From Squalus acanthias (taxonomy: Eukaryota): a stretch of DNA of 64,000 nt. Location: positions 117,554,001-117,618,000 of the forward strand of contig CM059431.1 in the NCBI GenBank assembly GCA_030390025.1, read 5' to 3'. Shown here piece by piece: positions 1-33,690 of this stretch. Numbering within the stretch: the first letter of the stretch is position 1; every line of letters begins with the position of its first letter. The notes under the pieces were generated by a model. That model was not told the origin of the DNA and did not search any database. It worked only from the letters and a program-made list of their open reading frames with translations. A program made the translations under genes and the position numbers.

Positions 1-95
1 TAAACCTGACAGCATTCTGCTGAAATAAAAGCTGTTTGAACGAAATTTTGTGTTTTCTCCTTATTAATCAAATCGCGATAATTGCGAATTCTACA
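1..95 (-). repeat. 3' LTR (first 95 nt only)
   Basis: Starts TGTAGAATT on the minus strand directly after a purine tract; 94/95 identical to 7674-7768. Confidence 0.95.
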
Positions 96-105
96 GTCCC
101 TCCTG
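96..105 (-). other. Polypurine tract
   Basis: Minus strand CAGGAGGGAC immediately precedes the TGTAG of the 3' LTR. Confidence 0.7.
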
Positions 106-520: not shown

Positions 521-2317
521 TTACACGGTGCTCTCATCGTGCACGCGCACGTAACGTTCTCGCCACTCTCCCGTGTTTTCATGCTTGGTGAGGCGCTTGT
601 CTCTTTTACAATGTATGACCAATAGGTACACTACAATAAACACTTGACAGACGACTAAAATGTGGGAGGCTATTCTGATCCATGAAGGCACTTCAATATT
701 CGTGAACAGATTCCACCACGGTGGAACCACTATGTCCAAAATGTCTGTTCCTATCTCGACAGTTTTCTGCTCTAACGTATAAAAATGCTTCTGTGATACC
801 GCGACGGCTTTCAGAAGTTTGGTTAAATGCTCAGGGAGAGGGGGAATGAGGTATCCAAAATGCGCGACAAATTGCTGCAAGTCGGTGAAATTCTCTTTTA
901 CTGTGAGATGAACAGTGGATGGTTCAGGGATTGGGATAATTCGCTGTTGTGCTACTTGAACTTCAGCCCTGGGTTTAAAACAGAAACTGCTGTCACTCAC
1001 CGGACACCGGCTACGGTTTCCATGCTGGTAGTGTTGCGCTGCAGTGGTAACACAATATGTTCCACCCCCGATGTATGCTACCTGCGGAGGCACATGATCT
1101 TGTGCCATTGCCTCCATGGTGCAATTCATGGACTTGGCGCCAGCCGTTCTGAACCCGCACTGTGGTGTTAAAAAGGCATTCAAGTGCTGGGGGCACAGTA
1201 TTATGTGTGCTCCCCTGCCACGACAACCAGAGAGATCTGTACCTGTCATCGTTTGCTCCCAGCGGATGACGTAAGGTGGAACCGCTGCATAACGAATGTG
1301 GGCTCCCCCCTGAATGACACCAATGTTCTCTACCCGATATACCGGGGCGGGCTTTGCTGTGTTGCCCAAAACCGGCATGCGTAATACTATTCCCATAATA
1401 GTATGGTTTGAACGTCCGCAGTCCACGGGGACTGGGTAAGCTTCTGAAGCTAGCCTGAGCTGGCACGGACTTAATGCGTTCTGAAAAGGGTGAAGCGCCC
1501 GTAGGTGTTTGTTACTTATCCAGGACGGAACCAAACCTTGTTTTAAATCCTCCAAATTACTGCGGCCCTCGCCCAGTAACCACGCCCCGTAAAGCACGCA
1601 CACCTCGTTCTGCGCAGCTTGATCGGATGCATTCCGATCTTCCCTAATCAGGGCATTTACCGTACGCGCATGTTTCTCCAGCTCTGCTATGATTTCCTTT
1701 AAATGGAGAGTCATGGCTTGGTCCTCGTGTAGACCTGACCCTACCACTTTATTCTCATCTGTTAGAATGTCTTTTAACTGTGTTTTTAAACCATTAATCT
1801 GGGTCTGCAGCTCCACACTGTCTAGAGCGTTGACCACAGATGTCCCTGTGTTAAAAGCAGTGAACGCATCGTTCACCACACCCCTTCTTTGTCTCCCCAC
1901 CTGACCCAAAACTTCGTGTGGTGCGGTGTACAAGCTTGTCTTGTCAATTTCTGCAAAATCAAACTCGTAAAATTGTCTGAACATCTTGGTCAACAGGACC
2001 TGATACAACTGTTCCGTCTTTTTGGGGCACCACTCCGGTAACCGTACCTCAGTGAGATTTAAAATCACCGAGGCCACCGCGTAATGTACCCCCTGAAATA
2101 GTATCTGGTCTGTGGGGACCAGTACCAAACCGTTCCCGGGTCCCTTACTAGTTTTAGGGCACCCTTCTTCCTCAGTTAGAACCACCGGAATCGTGGGCGG
2201 GGCTTTGCGTGGGCGCGTAATGAGCTCAGTGGCATTTACTGGGATCGGGGAGAATGGGGCTCCGCACCCCCTGGTGCTCGCATCCCACCTCATCCCCTGT
2301 CCGTTAAATCCCCTCAT
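521..2317 (-). CDS. env: Envelope glycoprotein main part, class I fusion protein with F-like architecture
   Basis: Furin site RQRR (1883-1894), then a putative fusion peptide GVVNDAFTAFNTGTSVVNAL, heptad repeat, long Cys-rich domain, second helix, TM (IASHILVVCQVFIVVYLLVIHC) and short tail; several N-x-S/T sequons. Confidence 0.88.
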   Translation of the reverse strand: MRGFNGQGMRWDASTRGCGAPFSPIPVNATELITRPRKAPPTIPVVLTEEEGCPKTSKGPGNGLVLVPTDQILFQGVHYAVASVILNLTEVRLPEWCPKKTEQLYQVLLTKMFRQFYEFDFAEIDKTSLYTAPHEVLGQVGRQRRGVVNDAFTAFNTGTSVVNALDSVELQTQINGLKTQLKDILTDENKVVGSGLHEDQAMTLHLKEIIAELEKHARTVNALIREDRNASDQAAQNEVCVLYGAWLLGEGRSNLEDLKQGLVPSWISNKHLRALHPFQNALSPCQLRLASEAYPVPVDCGRSNHTIMGIVLRMPVLGNTAKPAPVYRVENIGVIQGGAHIRYAAVPPYVIRWEQTMTGTDLSGCRGRGAHIILCPQHLNAFLTPQCGFRTAGAKSMNCTMEAMAQDHVPPQVAYIGGGTYCVTTAAQHYQHGNRSRCPVSDSSFCFKPRAEVQVAQQRIIPIPEPSTVHLTVKENFTDLQQFVAHFGYLIPPLPEHLTKLLKAVAVSQKHFYTLEQKTVEIGTDILDIVVPPWWNLFTNIEVPSWIRIASHILVVCQVFIVVYLLVIHCKRDKRLTKHENTGEWRERYVRVHDESTV

Positions 2318-2798
2318 CCGGTTCCCACCATTTGTCCCAACAGACTTTCACTTGTCCGTCTGTCCCCGTAATTGTCCGATGGGTATTATTACCCAGTCGT
2401 TCCCACTCGACCGAAGAGTTTCTCATAGTTTTGCTCAGCTTTCGCAGCCACCACCATCGGCTCAATGGGACATCCCCACTACAGGTCAAACAAATCCGTT
2501 TGCCGACGGTGACGCTGATCCTGGGTGCGATGATCCGTACTTTGGGGCACATTAAAGAAGTCTCTTTGTAGGCGAACCCCGATGTGCTGGAATACTCCGT
2601 TGAGTTCGTTCCCAGCCATCCTGGCCACCTTCCCTTGTGGAAATAGGTGCTGGTCCCCTCTGCCTTCCGTCTTCCGGTCCCATCCACCGCGATGGGGGCC
2701 GTGTCCCCGGAACATCCAAACACCACGACATCCTTGGTGTGGCCTCGATAGGCCAATCCACATCCGATTGCCACGAGCAATACTAGAAGTCGTTCCAT
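2304..2798 (-). CDS. Env N-terminal part (signal peptide plus possible Ig-like domain), frameshifted from 521-2317
   Basis: Signal peptide MERLLVLLVAIGCGLA; ISVTVGKRICLTC...WWW...DEGI*. Removing one A from ATT TAA C gives DEGIY-GQGMRW, in frame with env. Putative acceptor TCACAG|G at 2812. Confidence 0.75.
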   Translation of the reverse strand: MERLLVLLVAIGCGLAYRGHTKDVVVFGCSGDTAPIAVDGTGRRKAEGTSTYFHKGRWPGWLGTNSTEYSSTSGFAYKETSLMCPKVRIIAPRISVTVGKRICLTCSGDVPLSRWWWLRKLSKTMRNSSVEWERLGNNTHRTITGTDGQVKVCWDKWWEPDEGI

Positions 2799-3088: not shown

Positions 3089-4270
3089 TTAAATTCTGAG
3101 AAGGCTGCTGCGAGCTCTTCCCGACGGTGGGAGGGCACTGACCCTTCCCTCTGATCTGCCGCAGCCTGTTGCTGCGCTGACCCTTTCCTCTGATCTGCCG
3201 CAGCCTGTTACTGCTGCGATGTGGCCTGTCTCTACCCGGGTTATCTTAACCTGAATTTTACGCCTTGGGGCAGTCTGGGGACATGACCACATCCTCCTGG
3301 GCTGGGGTTCTCTGCTTGACCTACGGGGAGTTGCTATGGGCGGGGGTTCCGTGACGGACGGACCGGGTTCCGAGACCTCCAACGGGATGACCTGGGGTTC
3401 CATCACAGTCGCCGGCTCCGCCTCCGCTGACTCCGCCTCCCTAACCTCGGGGCTGGCATTTCGTGGCTCCGCCCTGCTCGGCCCAGCAGGCGGCCCTTCA
3501 CTCGTGATCTCTGCCTCCTCTGAGGACTGGACGTTCAAAGCGGGCGGCCACACCTCTGGGAACCACATTGGTACTCTCTGTGCTCCTATAGCGGCTGGCC
3601 CTGCCTCCTCTAGCTCCTCCCTCCTGTTGTCGGGACCTGCAGCTTGTGTGTCCACCCCGTGTGGATCTCTACCTATCGGCCCCATTCCTCCCAGACCGTT
3701 CCTCAGGAACCACCCGTCATCATCACTATGCTCATCTGCACTATCCTCATCTGACCAGGGTACCCTGGGTTCTTCGTCATCTAACCCCCAACTCCAGAAA
3801 AACGCTGCATGATCGTCCGGGATGTCCCTTCCCCTGATGCAAGCTGCTACGCCTGCCTGTGTGCCTTGTGGTCCTACCTGGGGCTGTGTTTTCCCACTCG
3901 CAGGTCTGGCCCCTCCCTTAAGACAGGCCACCGCCCCTGCTTGTTTCTGTGAAATCTCACCTGCTGGAGGCTGCAGATTTCTATCCTGTTTTAAATACTC
4001 ATACTCCCTGCTCCTGGCTACCCTGTAGGCTGTTTTTATCTCTCTAAGCTGCTCTTCTAGCCTGAGCACGTCTAACTTTCCCATTGCTCGGGCGTTCTCC
4101 TCCCGCAGGGTCTGCTCTCTAAGCTGCCCTTCCAGCCCATCTATTTTCCCTATTAAGCGGGCGTTCTCCTCCCGCAAGGCCTGCTCTTTTAACCTGGCCT
4201 CCTCACCGCAGACCCCCTCCTGTGCGTGTCTTTTAAAAGGACACAGGTAGGCAGGCTGCGTGGGCTCTAG
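3089..4270 (-). CDS. ORF2: 393-codon in-frame readthrough extension of Gag; coiled coil, acidic/Trp-rich and Pro/Glu-rich; not Pol
   Basis: After the gag TGA (4273-4271) the frame continues CTA GAG CCC ACG... for 31 open codons into the listed 3089..4177 ORF, which starts at TTG, not ATG. Confidence 0.8.
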   Translation of the reverse strand, partial: LEPTQPAYLCPFKRHAQEGVCGEEARLKEQALREENARLIGKIDGLEGQLREQTLREENARAMGKLDVLRLEEQLREIKTAYRVARSREYEYLKQDRNLQPPAGEISQKQAGAVACLKGGARPASGKTQPQVGPQGTQAGVAACIRGRDIPDDHAAFFWSWGLDDEEPRVPWSDEDSADEHSDDDGWFLRNGLGGMGPIGRDPHGVDTQAAGPDNRREELEEAGPAAIGAQRVPMWFPEVWPPALNVQSSEEAEITSEGPPAGPSRAEPRNASPEVREAESAEAEPATVMEPQVIPLEVSEPGPSVTEPPPIATPRRSSREPQPRRMWSCPQTAPRRKIQVKITRVETGHIAAVTGCGRSEERVSAATGCGRSEGRVSALPPSGRARSSLLRI

Positions 4271-6082
4271 TCATTGGGTACTATTAGACGGTCCTGCGGC
4301 ACCTACGGGGCCGGTTGCGACCGCCACCTGTCCACGCGCATTCAAAACCATCTTGCGCATGGCTCCTAACACTGCTTCGAGGTCGTCGGGAGAGGTGGGT
4401 GCCTTTGCTTCCTTAGGCGGGACAGGCGCCTGGGCTCGGACCGCGGGATTTTTATCCTTGGAATCCTTCCAAGGGTTCCTGCAGTGCTTGCGCCAGTGCC
4501 CTGTCTTCCCACACCCGTAACAGGCATTACTTGCCTGTGGGGCGCGATTACCCTCCTGATGCCACTCTCTTTGAGCCGGGGCTGCGGGTCGTACCTCATG
4601 TACTCTTCCCTTAAAGGGACGTGTCGTCATACCCCTTATGTTACGGTAACCTAACGTGAGTCGATTCAAGACCGACTCTTCCGTAAGGTTGAGGTCATTG
4701 GGATCGAACCAGGCTTTTGCCTGCTCTCTAACGGCTGGTAAACTGTTGGCTATTATGCACCTAAGCCAATGAATTAAAGCGGCGCCTTCCACATCTTCGC
4801 GCTCGGGCGCACCTAGACAGCTGCGCTCATATACTGGCCACAGCCTGTCGGCAAAAACCTTCGGGGGTTCTCCCTCCATCTGCACTGTCTGTCCCACTCT
4901 AGCAAACGGACCTCCGTCGTTCGCTCCCACTACTTCTAGGACCTCATTTTTCAATTCCTCATAACTTTTGTTTCCCCTCTTGCTCTCGCCTGAGAGACAC
5001 TGAAGGACCGAGCTGTCTAATGAGAACAGCAGCATTTTTGCTGTCTCCCCATCATCGCAGCCGTTAATGGCTGCGGCTTGCTCAACTTCCCTGAAATGTA
5101 CGGAAGGGTCGTCTATCTCGGTCAGCTTCCTTACGTGGTTTATCATGGCTCTCAGCTGATGTGAACTGTGAGGCAACACCAGCTGTCCGAGGAGATCCCC
5201 CGGTTCTTCCCCACCGTTTCTGCTTGGGCCCCTTTTAATCCCCGTTACTGGATACAACGATCCCTTTTTTACTTCCTTTTCAACGGGCTCTTTTGTTTCT
5301 TCCGTTGCTTCCTCCCTAACCCAGGTTTCTGAATAGCTGGGTGGCGCGGAGGGCGCAGTGGCTACTACTTCTTCTGCTTTACTTGGTGGGGAATTTCTAA
5401 ATCTCTCATTTACTAGCGGCTGGCGCGCCGACGGATTGATAAGGCACACCATGCCGTTCGCATTATTCACGGCCTTTTTGAGGCTCTCTATCTCTTTTTG
5501 GCAGGCGCTATGGTCGGCTCCCTGAAACTTATCCTCAAGGGCCAACTTATACGCCGACCTAACCCCCATTAAGCTCTCTTCTTGAGTTCTTATCTGGGCA
5601 GCTTGGCGGTTACATCTTTCCTTCATCCTACTCTCGTTCAATTTTGCTTCAGTGATCTGGCACTCGAGATACTCTACCCTTGTTTTAAGGTAACTGGAGA
5701 CTTCCTGGCTTTCCTGGCGTAACTCATTTAAATTCTTAATGAGCACCTCCCCTCCAGAAACCTTCTCCTCCATTTCTCCCTCTAAATGGCTGATACGAGC
5801 TGTTAGCGCTGTAATGGTCTGGTTTGAAATCTGAACCTGCCTTTTGTAGCACATAAGCCAGACTGCTTTCTCAACTGCCTTTTTATGCTCCTTACTATCT
5901 GTCCACCTTTCAGCTGCCTCTAGTGGGCTCTTATCCGCTAACAATTCACTTATCCACTTTTTAGTTAGATTAACCTTTCCAAACACATAATCCGCTATCT
6001 TTTCCTGCATAACATTTCGTACCGTCATTCCAAAATCTAACACACTACCCTCTCGCTGCCAGTGTCCTGCCGCGGTCGCCAT
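4271..6082 (-). CDS. gag: Gag polyprotein, 603 aa
   Basis: Long N-terminal coiled coil; PSAPPSY (5333-5353); MHR-like QMEGEPPKVFADRL; CCHC knuckle CYGCGKTGHWRKHC (4481-4522); position directly after the PBS. Confidence 0.93.
   Translation of the reverse strand: MATAAGHWQREGSVLDFGMTVRNVMQEKIADYVFGKVNLTKKWISELLADKSPLEAAERWTDSKEHKKAVEKAVWLMCYKRQVQISNQTITALTARISHLEGEMEEKVSGGEVLIKNLNELRQESQEVSSYLKTRVEYLECQITEAKLNESRMKERCNRQAAQIRTQEESLMGVRSAYKLALEDKFQGADHSACQKEIESLKKAVNNANGMVCLINPSARQPLVNERFRNSPPSKAEEVVATAPSAPPSYSETWVREEATEETKEPVEKEVKKGSLYPVTGIKRGPSRNGGEEPGDLLGQLVLPHSSHQLRAMINHVRKLTEIDDPSVHFREVEQAAAINGCDDGETAKMLLFSLDSSVLQCLSGESKRGNKSYEELKNEVLEVVGANDGGPFARVGQTVQMEGEPPKVFADRLWPVYERSCLGAPEREDVEGAALIHWLRCIIANSLPAVREQAKAWFDPNDLNLTEESVLNRLTLGYRNIRGMTTRPFKGRVHEVRPAAPAQREWHQEGNRAPQASNACYGCGKTGHWRKHCRNPWKDSKDKNPAVRAQAPVPPKEAKAPTSPDDLEAVLGAMRKMVLNARGQVAVATGPVGAAGPSNSTQ
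6064..6081 (-). other. Primer-binding site for tRNA-Arg(UCG)
   Basis: Plus strand GTCCTGCCGCGGTCGCCA equals the 3' 18 nt (with CCA) of vertebrate tRNA-Arg-TCG as I recall it; lies 5 nt from the LTR end (...TTACA GAAAA TGGCG). Confidence 0.88.
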
Positions 6083-6086
6083 TTTC

Positions 6087-7768
6087 TGTAAGGGATTCTC
6101 CTGACCCTGCGTGTCTCGTAGCCTGTGAGATTCACGCGGCTCTGTGCAGCCTGTATGTCAGTGCGGGTCTAGGCCTGGTTGCCTGTTCTGGTCTCCAGCC
6201 GGTCTGGGAACACTAGACACACCTGTGAGTGGTTCGAATCACTCTCCCTTACGGTTCTAGACACTGGACTTAGATGCGAGAGCAGTAATGGAGATAAAAC
6301 TCATGTAGACTTGGTTTGAATGGTACGAAATGGAAAATCTTTATTGCATGATACTTAAAATTATGAAATACATGTCATACGCACAGATTAATGACAGTAC
6401 AATTCTGACAAACGGTTATAATCAATCTTAGGGAAACGAGGAACGAACGGCACAACGTAAATAGGGCACACATTACAAATATCCTTAATCTTTAAACCCT
6501 CCCCTATCAATATCTATCCTAAACTAGCTTCGTAGGATCTCGAGACTCATGCTCACCACTCGTAATAACTCGGAGAAATCCCGAATAGCTGATCGGATGT
6601 TTTTCACCGCAGCACCCACGTGTCGGTCAGGAGATCTCCCGGTCCCACTTGTTTACTGGCTTCTGCTGCTCGGGCTAGTAGGCTGGACCGTCTGCTGTAG
6701 TGAAGACCTCTGTTGGTTGACTTCACAGTTTAGTCGAGGAGCACCGTTGTCAATATCATTGATACGATGTGTTTGCACAGTCCAGTTATCATTGATGCAA
6801 TATGCTTTGTTAGAAGTTTAAAGAAGAAAACTTCCTGTCGAGAAGACTTGGCTGATCGACCTACAGGCGCGGTCGGGATTTACTGACCGTGGCGATGGAT
6901 ATGGTCTTCTTCTCTTCTCCTCTCATCTCATCTCATCTCATCTCATCTCGGGCCTTTGGTTCCGCTGCCAGTTACCAACATAGGTCTTCGTTACGCGACA
7001 CGAGGTAGATCCGAACGGATCAGAAAGTTCAACAGTCTTTTACACAGGAGCAGCCACGAGGTTACGAACCGACCGGATAAAACACAGGAGCAGCCACGAT
7101 GATAAGAGCAGCAAGCGAGCAAGAGCGGCAAGAGAGCGAATGGACGGTTTGGGGCCTGCAATTATAGTGCAAAAATCTTCCGTTTCCCGCCCAACTATAA
7201 TGTCCATTCTTTTGTTTAGGGTTTGGCGCCCAAATGTCTTGTATGGGTGATCTCCGTTCTTAATGGGTTTCGGGGCTACTCATGAATGTTTGAGTACCTG
7301 TTAATATTTCTCCCATTGTTAAATCGGTCGGTGTTCTCCCTGGAGGGGTTTGGGGCTTCCAAGTGTCCTGTATAACTACCTGCTAACGGCTCTCTCATCG
7401 TAGAGCCGTTGGGAGTTTACATATTAATGTCCTTTGGATGGGCCCTTAAGTACTTGGTACAATGGCTTTCCTTTGCACCTGGGAGACCGATTCCAGTATC
7501 TATGTTTATACTGCAAACCCATAATGTCCCGTGTATTATCTTCACTGTGCTGAATCGTTATCGATCTTGCAAAAAAATGTTTAATGGAACGCCATCTTGT
7601 CTGCCTGTTGAAAAGTCTAGAATGTTCTGTCACGAGGTGCGGCGGCCATTTTACAGGCTGCTTGTGTCCAATTTAAACCTGACAGCATTCTGCTGAAATA
7701 AAAGCTGTTTGAACGAAATTTTGTGTTTTCTCCTTATTAATCAAATCGCGATAATTGCAAATTCTACA
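6087..7768 (-). repeat. 5' LTR, 1682 bp (TGTAG...TTACA)
   Basis: Right boundary from the match to 1-95; left boundary inferred from the CA end next to the PBS; AATAAA at 6345-6340. Confidence 0.85.
7161..7229 (-). promoter_or_regulatory. Putative LTR core promoter: TATAAT, ETS (CGGAAG) and two E2F-type sites
   Basis: TATAAT on the minus strand at 7166-7161; CTTCCG 7177-7182; TTTCCCGC 7183-7190; TTTGGCGC 7222-7229. Confidence 0.45.
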
Positions 7769-8429
7769 GAACCAAAGCATTTTATTACAAATATTCCTAA
7801 TATTTACAGGCTATTATATCCACATCCACAAGTGAAGATAAGATGACTTCTGCTGCTTAGTTCATTGCTGGTCCATCTCAGTTACAGCATTCTTCAGATA
7901 GCCTTGAATCAGTGTTCGTTAAGGTGAGAGAAGTTAATGCTGAGGAATGAATTTCAGGGATCCAGCATCAAATAATCCCAAAACAGGGACAATATGATTA
8001 AAACAGTGGAAAGCTCCCTCGACTCCGCTCCAAAAATATACATCAGCCCCAGCCTCGGAAGAGCAACCCCTACTGTCCCATATGACATTTTCCCAGTTCT
8101 CACATCAATCAGCCTGTAACATTTTGGAGTGAGATTGCCAATCAGTACCATAAGGTCATTTGGGCTATGGGCTCATCCTCACCACCCTTACGTGGGAGAG
8201 CAAATTGAACAATTGGGCAGAAAATCCAGAGGGCTGCAAATCGGGTGTGCTGACCTGTCTGGCCGATTGGCTGATTTGCCCTGCTGTTGACTGAGTCTCC
8301 GTGCCGGGAGTGCTAAGTTACAAAGCTACCCCTAAATCACGAGTTGAGTTTGGCAGCAGCGTGTTATCAGCAAAAAGAAATTTGTAGTTTTATTTCTGTT
8401 GCAGGTATTTCTGATAGAATAACAGTGTA

Positions 8430-8785
8430 TTTTCTTTTCATTTGTTCTCGGGATGCGAGTGATGCTGGCAATGCCACATTGATTGTTCATCCCGAGTTGC
8501 TCTGAGAAGGTGGTGGTGGGCCTTCTCTTTGAACTGTAAAAATCCTGGTGGTGATGGTACCCCCACAACACTGTTAGGTAGGAAATTCCAGTATATTGAC
8601 CTAATGACGATGAATGAACGATGATATATATCTGAGTCAGGATGGTGTGCGCTTTAAAGGCGAACTTGGAGGCGATAATGTTCCCACGACCGCGCTGCTT
8701 TTGTCCTCCTGAGTGGTAGAGGTTGCAGGAGAAGGATTTGCTGTCGAAGTAACCTTGGTGAGTCATTACAGTTCATCCTGTAGAT
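8430..8785 (-). mobile_element. Degenerate LINE 3' fragment (same family as 9558-10567)
   Basis: Diverged similarity to 9560-9910 (GAGAAGGTGGTGGTG...GTACCCCCACA). Confidence 0.65.
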
Positions 8786-9557: not shown

Positions 9558-10567
9558 ATTTTTTTTATTCGTTTATGAGATGTGGGCATCGCTGGCAAAG
9601 CCAGCATTTATTGCCCATCCCTAATTGCCCTTGAGAAGGTGGTGGTGAGCCGCCTTCTTGAACCGCTGCAGTCCGTGTGGTGATGGTACTCCCACAGTGC
9701 TGTTAGGTAGGAAGTTCCAGGATTTTGACCCAGCGACGATGAAGGATCGGCGATATACTTCTAAGTCCGGATGGTGTGTGACTTGAATGGGAACTTGGAG
9801 GTGGTGGTGTTCACATGCGCCTGCTGCCTCCTTCTAAGTGGAAGAGGTCGCGGGTTTGGGAGGTGCTGCTGAAGAAGCCTTGACGAGTTGCTGCAGTGCA
9901 TCTTGTAGATGGTACACACTGCAGCCACAGTACGCCGGTGGTGGAGGGAGTGAATGTTTAAGGTGGTGGATGGGATGCCAATCAAGCGGGCTGCTTTGTC
10001 CTGGATGGTGTCGAGCTTCTTGAGTGTTGTTGGAGCTGCACTCATCTAGGCAAGTGGTGAGTATTCCATCACACTCCTTACTTGTGCCTTGTAGATGGTG
10101 GAAAGGCTTTGGGGAGTCAGGAGTTTAGACACTCGCTGCAGAATACCTAACCTCTGACCTGCTCTTGTTGCCACAGTATTTATGTGGCTGGTCCAGTTAA
10201 GTTTCTGGTCAATGGTGACCCCCAGGATGTTGATGGTGGGGGATTCGGCGATGGTAATGCCGTTGAATGTCAAGGGGAGGTGGTTCAATTCTCGCTTGTT
10301 GGAGATAGTCATTGCTTGGCACTTCTGTGGTGCGAATGTTACCTGCAACTTATCAGCCCGAGCCTGAGCGTCATCCAGGTCTTGTTGCATGCGGGCATGG
10401 ACTCCTTCATTATCTGAGGAGTTGTGAATGGTGCTGAACACTGTGCAGTCATCAGCGAACATCCCCATTTCTGACTTTATGTTGGAGGGAAGGTCATTGA
10501 TGAAGCAGTTGAAGATGGTTGGGCCTAGGACACTGCCCTGAGGAACTCTTGCAGCGATGTCCTGGGG
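9558..10567 (-). mobile_element. 5'-truncated CR1/L2-group LINE (RT C-terminus and 3' UTR)
   Basis: FADD motif, ILGVTIDQKLNW, YKAQVRSVMEY; in-frame stop at 10046; AATAAA and A-rich tail. Confidence 0.88.
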
Positions 10568-33063: not shown

Positions 33064-33690
33064 CCAAGCTAGCAACAAGAGCAGGTCACAGGCTGGGCAT
33101 TCTGTGGCAAGTGTCTCACCTCCTGACTCCCCAAAGCCTTTCCACCATCTACAAGGCACAAGTAAGGAGTGTAATGGAATACTCTCCACTTGCCTGGATG
33201 AGCGCAGCTCCAACAACACTCAAGAAACTTGACACCATCCAGGACAAAGCAGCCCGCTTGATTGGCACCCCATCCACCAACTTAAACATCCACACCCTCC
33301 ACCACCAGCGTACTGTGGCTGCAGTGTATATCATCTACAAGATACACTGCAGCAACTCGCCAAGGCTTCTTCGGCAGCACCTCCCAAACCCGCGACCTCT
33401 TCCACCTAGAAGGACAAGGGCAGCAGGCACATGGGAACACCACCACCTCCAAGATCCCCACCAAGTCACACACCATCCTGACTTGGAAATATATCACCGA
33501 TCCTTCATCGTCGCTGGGTCAAAATCCTGGAACTCCCTCCCTAACAGCACTGTGGGAGCACCTTCACCACACGGACTGCAGCGGTTCAAGAAGGTGGCTC
33601 ACCACCACCTTCTCAGGGGCAATTAGGGATGGTCAATAAATACTGGCCTTGCCAGCGACGCCCACATCCCATAAACAAATTTAAAAAGAA
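33064..33690 (+). mobile_element. LINE 3' fragment (same family as 9558-10567)
   Basis: YKAQVRSVMEYSPLAW...WNSLP; AATAAA and A-rich end. Confidence 0.88.

Follow-up and report, generated by a model that had tools for sequence, protein, structure and literature searches.

The 64,000-nt window, which is the whole stretch of DNA analysed here, carries on its minus strand what is probably (at a rough probability of 0.6) one copy of a non-autonomous element, derived by deletion of pol from an endogenous retrovirus that is very young and high in copy number. The derivative has kept a putative leaky stop codon at the end of gag, and readthrough of this codon would yield a minority Gag-deltaPol fusion. 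The frame behind the stop (ORF2) has no enzyme domain detectable with Pfam. The element is a variation on known defective retroviruses and holds no new kind of gene.

Architecture of the element

The features of the element, in its own direction of reading, are as follows.

7674..7769, minus strand: outer (first) 96 nt of the 5' LTR, a direct repeat with 1-96 (95/96 identical)
6221..6260, minus strand: leader stretch whose complement is tRNA-like, with a T arm and the 3' strand of the acceptor (read from the sequence)
4274..6082, minus strand: gag, 603 codons, with an N-terminal helical/coiled region and one CCHC knuckle (reading frame)
4267..4273, minus strand: leaky-stop candidate, TGA (4273-4271) plus CTAG, with CAA before the TGA (read from the sequence)
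4238..4270, minus strand: Pol stub, Pol codons 1-11 (N-terminus of PR); homology to pol-bearing siblings stops 32 nt past the stop
4201..4264, minus strand: predicted 21-pair hairpin, beginning 6 nt past the stop (folding; -29.1 kcal/mol for 72 nt)
3897..4238, minus strand: 342-nt segment absent from young pol-bearing siblings (no similarity to a pol-bearing copy)
3980..4213, minus strand: predicted coiled coil, ORF2 residues 20-97, a single long helix (AF2 model)
3092..3896, minus strand: Pol C-terminal tail, acidic, Pro/Ala/Gly-rich, predicted disordered (matches about 1240-1507 of the siblings' Pol)
3089..3091, minus strand: ORF2 stop, which is the siblings' Pol stop (reading frame and sibling comparison)
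521..2798, minus strand: env-like gene, in the window copy two overlapping frames (2798..2304 and 2317..521)
97..104, minus strand: polypurine-tract candidate, the purine tract AGGAGGGA just upstream of the 3' LTR (read from the sequence)
1..96, minus strand: first 96 nt of the 3' LTR, clipped by the window start (direct repeat with 7674..7769)

The 5' LTR starts, in the sense of the element, with TG at 7768, and the homology of other copies begins at the same point. The leader stretch may be an extended primer-binding site, though it lacks the usual TGG start; ARAGORN found no tRNA genes in the window. The protein collection contains three homologues of Gag (the best, from a skate, at 51% identity), and the zf-CCHC of Gag is a weak Pfam match (E 0.3). 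Pfam searches of gag, ORF2 and both env pieces gave nothing above the cut-offs. As the preliminary description of this DNA had claimed, gag ends in CAA-TGA-CTAG and the same frame stays open for 393 codons (4270..3092). The remaining two sense frames of ORF2 contain 23 and 22 stops, and the open frame is therefore no effect of composition. If the stop is read through, the product has 603 + 1 + 393 = 997 residues, the length that had been proposed for a Gag-ORF2 protein.

The helix modelled by AF2 at ORF2 residues 20-97 has a pLDDT of 83-96 and includes an internal 69-nt (23-codon) duplication (4065-4118 / 4134-4187). As a parallel dimer, the coiled coil scores 0.44 versus 0.01 for the best control, with a tool whose mark is reached by 21/30 solved homodimers and 0/23 monomers; the runs agree in at least 95% of contacts, and the partner pLDDT is at least 81. 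The tail that follows (about 265 codons, pLDDT below 50) holds a 39-nt tandem repeat (3135-3212) with a number of units that differs among copies, and no Pfam domain was found in the tail. (An antisense ORF of 158-226 codons overlies the tail; since it lies in the codon-complement phase, it was judged a by-product of codon composition.)

Descent from pol-bearing siblings

Where does ORF2 come from? In all 10 fetched gag-positive loci without the 342-nt segment, about 3.68 kb lie between the two points at which homology breaks, and identity is 97-99% on either side. The segment stands in frame in place of these 3.68 kb, which code for PR-RT-RNaseH-IN. One sibling reads gag, TGA and then 1507 codons with the same tail as ORF2 at the end; the domains of sibling Pol are RVP, RVT_1, RNase H, Integrase_H2C2, rve and SH3. 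The Pol frame is open for 1494 or 1507 codons directly past the gag TGA in 9 of the 10 siblings. A CCHC knuckle lies about 70 codons before the stop and DTGA about 36 codons after it. The matches of sibling Pol to Ty3 (1e-71), XMRV/MLV RT (4e-70) and foamy PR-RT (1e-63) are about equal, and that to HIV RT is at about 1e-15.

Two points of the preliminary description have to be revised. It took ORF2 for a non-Pol protein, but about two-thirds of the frame, at 3896..3092, comes from the siblings' 1507-codon Pol, of which it forms the C-terminal tail. It also regarded the Gag-Pol recoding switch as reused; because the siblings have the same TGA-CTAG followed by the in-frame Pol, the site was inherited unchanged. 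The suspicion that ORF2 opens with a remnant of the former start of pol was well founded, since homology to pol-bearing relatives runs to 32 nt beyond the stop before it ends, to resume at the tail.

The insert has no similarity, at the DNA or protein level, to a pol-bearing copy, and BLASTP against gag gave E = 1.1. A phmmer search of 1.84 billion representatives returned one marginal match, to a long coiled-coil protein (E = 1e-3); ORF2 had no match of near or longer length in a word-indexed collection, and the insert scored under 0.9 against Atlas features. No cellular source for the coiled coil came to light in these searches; a segment as short as this, and of the coiled-coil type, is difficult to trace. 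The last 25-35 codons of the 342-nt segment probably descend from the end of integrase. Older deleted copies read ..NQCKLYKPGAQ.. here, as in Pol, and retain the last residues of integrase. Judged by such comparisons, the foreign part of ORF2 is only the coiled coil of some 50-80 codons.

The stop codon and the hairpin behind it

TGA-CTAG is kept in 30/30 close deleted copies and at 11/11 gag ends across the 10 pol-bearing loci. Older junctions (n = 31) have C at +4 without exception, CUAG in 25 cases and the hexanucleotide UGACUA in 26, the others having CUG (4) or CGA (1). According to a review, alphaviruses have UGACUA as their type II readthrough motif, downstream stem-loops boost readthrough several-fold, and fish and frog retroviruses related to the epsilonretroviruses have UGA at the gag-pol junction (PMC13517186). 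A retroviral UGA-CUAG site was not described in the literature searched, a limited library. The stop context argues for readthrough as the route to ORF2 translation, in agreement with the preliminary description; both the occurrence of readthrough and its level are predictions from this context. Contigs of four runs cover the element, and those of two runs span the junction of stop, stub and insert; they are uninformative on transcription, splicing and level, and no joint resembling a splice was found in them.

The predicted hairpin starts 6 nt past the stop in both the deleted and the pol-bearing forms. In the deleted form, its 5' arm is the pol stub and its 3' arm is the first 35 nt of the segment specific to this form. 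The stem noted earlier (CCTGTG...CACAGG, 4247-4219) exists and makes up the apical 7 of the 21 pairs. By energy alone, the hairpin is unremarkable, with z = -1.2 at 80 nt (25/200 shuffles as good) and z = -2.25 at 120 nt (3/200). With the 32-nt stub held fixed, an equally stable fold was obtained from other 40-mers in 22/500 shuffles, 8/500 element windows and 7/500 GC-matched windows, so that only 1.4-4.4% of control 40-mers equal the stub-to-insert pairing. Over 23 distinct variants, 91% of cells are paired and no two-sided covariation was found; in several older copies the lower stem is unformed (-20 to -25 versus -29 kcal/mol). Third-codon sites are variable at 1/17 positions in nt 22-72 (the hairpin) versus 17/38 in nt 73-186 (p = 0.005, for a partition chosen post hoc). 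The near-freezing of synonymous sites in the hairpin shows constraint at the RNA level. As part of the best explanation, the first bases of the foreign segment would probably pair with the kept stub and so re-form the predicted hairpin at the same place.

Maintenance of the frame

Copies of the deleted form make up an old and numerous family. Junction plus insert gave 1798 first-look candidates, and the 40 that were scored are all at least 99% identical and spread over many contigs; older subfamilies exist besides these young copies. (The host genome measures 3.7 Gb and is probably that of a cartilaginous fish.) Copy lists from genome searches score only the best candidates and thus lean towards intact copies. 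A less biased set is formed by 38 young copies chosen by junction DNA alone, of which 34 keep the frame open as far as the native end, 1 has lost the stop and 3 are broken. Among 117 older copies (85-96% amino acid identity), 99 are free of stops and the other 18 carry a single one each; the nonsense-to-missense ratio to be expected is 0.063. The window copy and an older subfamily member, which differ by a dS of 0.36 and are 72% identical in the tail, both have open frames, and in a simulation with 200 random substitutions the tail was still open in 0.16% of trials. The preliminary description had named disruption of ORF2 at neutral rates in sister copies as the outcome that would speak against it; the result favours a maintained frame.

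Is the frame maintained for the sake of its product? It is conceivable, if unlikely, that the deletion fell in frame by chance, that readthrough is an inherited side effect, that the product has no role and that the frame is open through youth and recombination with siblings. One deletion in three would be in frame by chance. The tail gives dN/dS values of 0.82-0.95 between young subfamilies, similar to those in shifted frames (0.68-0.89), and 0.95 against an older copy; it retains its frame, not its residues (dN/dS about 0.9). ORF2 in the 30 closest copies has a dN/dS of 0.79 versus 0.65 and 1.51 in controls. Tails of pol-bearing and deleted copies intermix in the tree, and the open tail frame could therefore reflect selection on Pol, spread by recombination. 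Subfamilies whose tails are 5-9% different are about 99% alike in junction and insert, a contrast that points to mosaic histories. However, the segment found only in the deleted form is constrained. In 21 older copies, dN/dS is 0.43 in the coiled coil (codons 12-62) versus 0.95 and 1.25 in shifted frames, and 0.36 over codons 1-62 versus 1.16 and 1.18. Coiled-coil variants shared by at least two copies are enriched for synonymous changes (8/19, neutral expectation 0.214, p = 0.034); among singletons the figure is 7/25 (p = 0.27), and the dN/dS intervals of single pairs touch or exceed 1. Over 90 codons of the segment, 19 of 20 further older copies have no stop and all 20 are free of frameshifts, and the segment varies in length by whole 23-codon units. 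The frozen synonymous sites of the hairpin also speak against a frame without a role.

The same freezing in nt 22-72 past the stop could mean that the 3' end of pol and the junction are kept for roles of the RNA in cis (env splice acceptor, export or packaging), with ORF2 not usefully translated. The tail, with no residue-level constraint, agrees with this, and gammaretroviral pol 3' sequences are reported to act in cis on gag RNA expression (PMC4174252). But an RNA element needs neither an open frame of 344-393 codons across a dS of 0.36 nor a deficit of nonsense changes, and the dN/dS of the coiled coil depends on codon phase, which is the signature of a protein; a purely RNA-level role is quite improbable. 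Least probable of all is that ORF2 is translated from a spliced or internally initiated mRNA instead of by readthrough: protein-level constraint shows translation and not its route, and there are in-frame methionines at residue 63 of the window copy (the first, which is why the earlier remark that ORF2 has no nearby ATG was correct) and at residue 40 of older copies, but constraint begins upstream of these (dN/dS 0.20 in codons 1-11), ORF2 lies in the gag frame right behind a conserved textbook leaky context, and the same site must serve the siblings for Pol.

A model for the fusion protein

In the preferred reading, that of a pol-deleted derivative with a leaky stop, the coding-competent siblings would make Pol by readthrough of the in-frame gag UGA, in its UGA-CUAG context and with a hairpin behind it. 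In the derivative, PR-RT-RNaseH-IN (about 3.68 kb) has been swapped in frame for a short segment coding for a coiled coil, and what it retains is the stop with its context, Pol codons 1-11 and the disordered Pol tail. Since stop and context are kept and the hairpin behind them appears re-formed, a few percent of ribosomes would be expected to read through. The resulting 997-residue fusion would run from Gag through 11 residues of PR and a dimerising coiled coil to the tail of Pol. The deleted form lacks RT and IN, and pol-bearing copies with open frames exist; the enzymes that copy the deleted elements would thus presumably come in trans from the pol-bearing siblings.

What would the defective element gain? 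By analogy, the fusion, which in the preliminary description would enter particles, may be of benefit to it and might act in cis on its own RNA, as reported for IAP I-delta-1. It is more doubtful whether the coiled coil is the adaptation of a retrovirus parasite, one that either aids the packaging or integration of its own RNA in helper particles or interferes with the helper. Such a defective genome would have kept the leaky stop of its helper and rebuilt the stimulatory hairpin from foreign sequence, and the low-level fusion would be a dimerising extension of Gag that bears the acidic motif of the integrase tail.

Comparison with known systems

ETn and VL30 are, like IAP I-delta-1, non-autonomous, internally deleted derivatives of endogenous retroviruses. 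The family in the window has its LTR and flanking internal sequence in common with coding-competent elements, lacks RT and IN, and has many dispersed copies. IAP I-delta-1, a deleted form that is not autonomous, is reported to have a novel gag-pol fusion ORF acting in cis and to be mobilised by proteins supplied in trans (PMC6466679). Both families are internally deleted, high-copy derivatives of a coding-competent endogenous retrovirus, and in both the deletion creates a novel Gag-Pol fusion ORF. In the window, however, the fusion lies behind a stop codon, and would therefore be a minority product; the enzymes have been swapped for a foreign coiled coil, and env is kept. The host is a fish-like vertebrate, not a mouse.

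The arrangement of the siblings is that of gammaretroviruses and epsilonretroviruses that use readthrough (MoMLV and WDSV, and SSSV, ZFERV and a toad ERV with UGA): gag and pol share one frame with a single stop, which lies between the NC knuckle and the DTGA motif of protease (PMC13517186). Unlike the UGA-CUAG found here, the contexts given in the review are UAG-GGA, UAG-GAU, UGA-AGA, UGA-CGA and UGA-AGU (PMC13517186). A hairpin is predicted here where gammaretroviruses have a pseudoknot, and the window copy has no Pol downstream.

UGA-CUAG is a readthrough signal of vertebrate genes such as OPRL1. With the type II signals (UGA-CUA / UGA-CGG) of alphaviruses, coltiviruses and some plant viruses, the window shares the UGACUA hexanucleotide and an extended, here predicted, stem-loop downstream. 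The site of o'nyong-nyong virus is UGA CUA GAC, that of the window UGA CUA GAG; the predicted hairpin starts at +10, whereas the viral structures described in the review start at +12 to +16, and others at +2 and +9 (PMC13517186). The predicted hairpin is also shorter (64 nt).

Replication-defective transducing retroviruses, in which Gag-X fusions arise as enzyme genes are replaced by foreign coding sequence, depend on helpers. The element resembles them in its helper dependence and in the in-frame union of viral with foreign coding sequence. It differs in that no cellular source was found for the coiled coil, that the foreign part is confined to about 50-80 codons, and that the family has long been multiplying in the germ line. 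No matching description of the replacement of pol by a coiled coil was found in the literature searched, again a limited library.

If the proposed explanation is correct, it places a type II signal, UGA-CUAG, at a retroviral gag-pol junction. The element would further be a natural experiment, in which a putative readthrough stimulator has had its 3' arm replaced and still pairs. Mouse IAP I-delta-1 would also be joined by a second, independent example of a defective endogenous retrovirus family whose own Gag-deltaPol fusion selection seems to keep. Should the coiled coil indeed belong to a parasite, the family would represent a "satellite" of an animal retrovirus, one that codes for protein, arose by natural evolution and relies on translational recoding. 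The family is abundant (thousands of first-look candidates) and young (many identical copies), which makes it well suited to the study of helper-dependent retroelements in a basal vertebrate.

The env gene

Lokiretroviruses have an Env similar to the F protein of paramyxoviruses and pneumoviruses (PF00523). The env of the window shows no such likeness, with no PF00523 match in the 598-residue part at E up to 1 or in the N-terminal 447 residues at E up to 0.01; comparison with the Atlas gave no usable match, and a single-sequence fold model (pLDDT 34) was unusable. The frame at 2798..2304 has a signal peptide, and that at 2317..521 has an RQRR site, a heptad region and a C-terminal membrane span. 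The two frames are split by a deletion near 2305 (about 72-73 nt) that only the window copy has: the extra 72 nt or so are present in 29/29 other deleted copies and in all 10 pol-bearing loci, and in a sibling env reads unbroken.

Layout of the element

The element lies on the minus strand of the window. Its direct repeat places the start of the 5' LTR at 7769 and that of the 3' LTR at 96, the latter extending past the window edge.

Features of the window element
1-96 and 7674-7769, minus strand: direct repeat of the LTRs, 95/96 bases identical
6082-4274, minus strand: gag, 603 codons, with a single CCHC knuckle
4273-4271, minus strand: gag stop codon TGA, followed by CTAG
4270-3092, minus strand: ORF2, in frame with gag, 393 codons
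downstream of ORF2, between the LTRs, minus strand: env-like gene with signal peptide, RQRR site and C-terminal membrane span

The open frame that the preliminary description saw behind CAA-TGA-CTAG is confirmed at its full 393 codons; the two alternative sense frames hold 23 and 22 stops, and the first in-frame methionine of ORF2 is residue 63. A domain search of the element's ORFs detected neither reverse transcriptase nor integrase. In env, about 72-73 nt are deleted near 2305, leaving two overlapping frames. This deletion is private to the window copy, being missing from 29 of 29 other pol-deleted copies and from 10 loci that retain pol.

In the leader, the plus strand at 6221-6260 resembles the T arm and acceptor 3' strand of a tRNA, so that the element is complementary there to about 27 nt of the 3' part of a tRNA; the stretch lacks the TGG (the CCA complement) with which a primer-binding site usually begins. 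The 5' LTR holds a short TCTCATC-type microsatellite at 6918-6950, a region in which contigs of public runs differ in length. Three copies of an unrelated repeat, each about 320 nt long (8464-8785, 9591-9910 and 33333-33656; 74-75% alike, one inverted), lie beside the provirus and farther out.

Origin of ORF2

Where did ORF2 come from? Ten gag loci outside the list of ORF2 matches were fetched for comparison with the window. They match its element at 97-99% until 32 nt beyond the gag stop; some 3.68 kb missing from the window follow, and homology restarts at window position 3896. In one such pol-bearing sibling, the gag frame ends in TGA-CTAG and is followed by 1507 open codons encoding a protease (DTGA), RVT_1, tether, RNase H, Integrase_H2C2, rve and SH3, and then a tail of some 270 residues that holds no domain and ends exactly as ORF2 does. 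The Pol frame is open for 1494 or 1507 codons in nine of the ten loci. By this comparison, ORF2 consists of Pol codons 1-11, a 342-nt insert that resembles nothing in the pol-bearing form, and the Pol tail. The preliminary description had been correct in suspecting a stub of the old pol start, and the alignment it proposed for locating the end of homology gives the two breakpoints named here. Its "non-Pol protein", on the other hand, is not borne out, ORF2 being this composite, and its idea of a reused switch gives way to an inherited readthrough site, TGA-CTAG already preceding Pol in the siblings.

Older, diverged deleted copies keep the last integrase residues (..NQCKLYKPGAQ..) between coiled coil and tail, as in Pol, and the foreign part is therefore only that coiled coil, some 50-80 codons long and built of one or two 23-codon units. 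Comparison with the pol-bearing copy, gag, protein collections and Atlas features found no source for it.

The Pol tail (window 3092-3896; Pol about 1240-1507; 7461-8268 in L040, one of the compared loci) is acidic and proline-rich, follows the integrase SH3, and retains the character of an acidic, Trp-containing patch; it may serve integrase in tethering or in interactions. Near its end, a 39-nt (13-codon) tandem repeat at 3135-3212 occurs in one to four units among copies, giving ORF2 lengths of 380, 393, 406 and 419 codons. An antisense ORF on the plus strand (3336-3812; 158 codons, 185 in a sibling and 226 in an older copy) sits in the codon-complement phase of the tail and is probably a by-product of composition.

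The putative readthrough signal

TGA-CTAG is found in 30/30 close deleted copies, preceded by CAA in 25 and CCA in 5, and at 11/11 gag ends of the 10 pol-bearing loci. At 31 older junctions the +4 base is always C, the stop being followed by CUAG in 25, CUGG in 4, CUAU in 1 and CGAG in 1. On other contigs, some of the older deleted copies (loci L074-L077) have TGA-CTGG instead; different sequence lies past the end of ORF2, and with the stop gone their frames stay open for 519-759 codons.

The stem-loop previously noticed at 4247-4219 is real and sits at the end of a larger predicted hairpin. For the deleted and the pol-bearing form alike, minimum-energy folding gives an extended hairpin that begins 6 nt downstream of the stop. 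The stub supplies its 5' arm. As 3' arm, pol-bearing copies use sequence coding for protease, and deleted copies use the initial 35 nt of the foreign segment. With the stub fixed, an equally stable fold arose in 22/500 shuffles of the insert, 8/500 other windows of the element and 7/500 GC-matched genome windows. Among 23 distinct natural variants, 91% of cells are paired and seven pairs are altered one-sidedly yet still paired; none shows two-sided covariation. The lower stem is confined to the young type, older copies folding at -20 to -25 kcal/mol versus -29.1 for the window type. In 20 older copies, third codon positions vary at only 1/17 sites within nt 22-72 downstream of the stop, against 17/38 in nt 73-186 (p = 0.005) and 6/7 in nt 1-21 (p = 0.0003), p-values that are indicative only, the nt 22-72 partition having been picked after the fold was known. 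This synonymous suppression is a constraint at the RNA level, located where a stimulator of readthrough would be expected.

Maintenance of the frame

Is ORF2 kept as a coding sequence? A search with its protein, which leans to intact copies, gave no stop in the 105 copies scored out of 12275 candidates. Because of this bias, 40 copies chosen by junction DNA alone were used instead. Eighteen were already in the ORF2 list, where no entry has a stop, and 20 of the other 22 were fetched. In 16 of them the frame runs to the native C-terminus, with lengths of 373-410 codons that reflect whole-codon indels and the number of 39-nt repeats; one has lost the stop and three are broken. The gag frame is open in 17 of these 20.

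Older deleted subfamilies extend the comparison. In one member, ORF2 spans 344 codons and reaches the homologous end uninterrupted; a second is interrupted by a single stop and a third by a single frameshift. The open copy stands at a dS of 0.36 from the window copy, and their tails share 72% of nucleotides and 55% of residues; in simulation, a tail given 200 random substitutions stayed open in 0.16% of trials. A search with the older ORF2 as query (117 scored of 9096 candidates, 85-96% residue identity) returned 99 that are stop-free, 18 with one stop and none with more. The expected nonsense-to-missense ratio is 0.063, from which unconstrained divergence of that size would, by arithmetic, leave each copy with about one to three stops. 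These counts and the simulation indicate a frame that stayed open during a long history in which the residues of the tail drifted, and on the earlier question of whether sister copies lose the frame at neutral rates they favour its retention.

In the tail itself, no residue-level constraint emerged from the young subfamilies (divergence 5-9%, dN/dS 0.82-0.95; shifted-frame controls 0.68-0.89) or from the 30 closest copies (ORF2 dN/dS 0.79; controls 0.65 and 1.51), and the open older copy versus the window copy gives 0.95. AF2 assigns pLDDT <50 from ORF2 residue 98 onward, and a kept frame with drifting residues fits such a disordered tail.

The frame might nevertheless be a passenger. Tails of the deleted and pol-bearing forms intermix in a tree, and the tail could owe its open frame to Pol, which makes the part specific to the deleted form the key test. 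The first 90 codons were fetched for 20 further older copies, of which one has a stop and none a frameshift. Over codons 12-62, the coiled coil, pairwise dN/dS among 21 older copies is 0.43, against 0.95 and 1.25 in shifted frames, and this constraint on the coiled coil itself speaks against the passenger explanation, which is the less likely reading. Over codons 1-62 the value is 0.36 (shifted frames 1.16 and 1.18). Single pairs give 0.26-0.63 for the coiled coil, with intervals that reach 1 or beyond. One copy with a two-codon indel was retained, which pushes the estimate towards 1. Variants present in at least two copies are synonymous in 8/19 cases (neutral expectation 0.214, p = 0.034); singletons, at 7/25, are near neutral (p = 0.27), as expected since decay follows insertion.

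AF2 predicts a single helix over ORF2 residues 20-97 (pLDDT 83-96). Modelled as two copies it forms a parallel, in-register pair scoring 0.44 versus 0.01 for the best control, with at least 95% of contacts agreeing between runs and partner pLDDT of at least 81; the calibration mark for this score is reached by 21/30 solved homodimers and 0/23 monomers, and the tool itself cautions that a pass may reflect memorisation.

The preferred reading, at a probability of about 0.6, is of a pol-deleted family that would rely on a helper and inherited its gag-pol readthrough site from the pol-bearing form. Leakage through the stop would yield a minority Gag-coiled-coil-Pol-tail fusion, and selection would maintain its frame and at least the coiled coil.

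Relatives and known systems

Searches covered the 3.7-Gb assembly, and the candidate totals are first-look figures, not copy numbers. For gag, 73 of 9689 candidates were scored, all 98-100% identical. The deleted-form junction with insert gave 1798 candidates, 40/40 scored being at least 99% identical, and the pol-bearing junction 2021, at least 31 of 40 scored being 100% identical over 404 nt. Both forms are abundant. Pol matches the enzymes of Ty3, MLV/XMRV and foamy viruses to a similar degree and those of HIV far more weakly, and its dual RNase H layout is retroviral. The best Gag match among collected proteins, 51% identical, comes from a skate, and a cartilaginous fish is the probable host. 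An F-like env, named as a lokiretrovirus hallmark in excerpts of PMC7947760, was not detected in a Pfam domain search of the env pieces.

According to portions of a 2026 review (PMC13517186), gamma- and epsilonretroviruses make pro-pol by UAG readthrough, and UGA stands at gag-pol in a salmon retrovirus (AGA next), a zebrafish ERV (CGA) and a toad ERV (AGU). The same portions define type II signals as UGACGG or UGACUA, for example in alphaviruses, the o'nyong-nyong virus site being UGA CUA GAC, and report that a stem-loop downstream lifts readthrough in VEEV from 0.8% to 7.6% and in Sindbis virus from 2.0% to 6.4%. The pol-bearing siblings, by their sequence, appear to follow the ordinary strategy with an alphavirus-like or OPRL1-like stop context; a limited literature search found no description of UGA-CUAG at a retroviral gag-pol boundary.

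Deleted, helper-dependent ERV families are already well known. The closest to the window family, as far as excerpts of PMC6466679 describe it, is IAP I-delta-1, in which a deletion yields a novel gag-pol fusion acting in cis. Unlike that element so described, the window family has its fusion behind a leaky-stop candidate, bears a coiled coil in place of the enzymes, and retains env.
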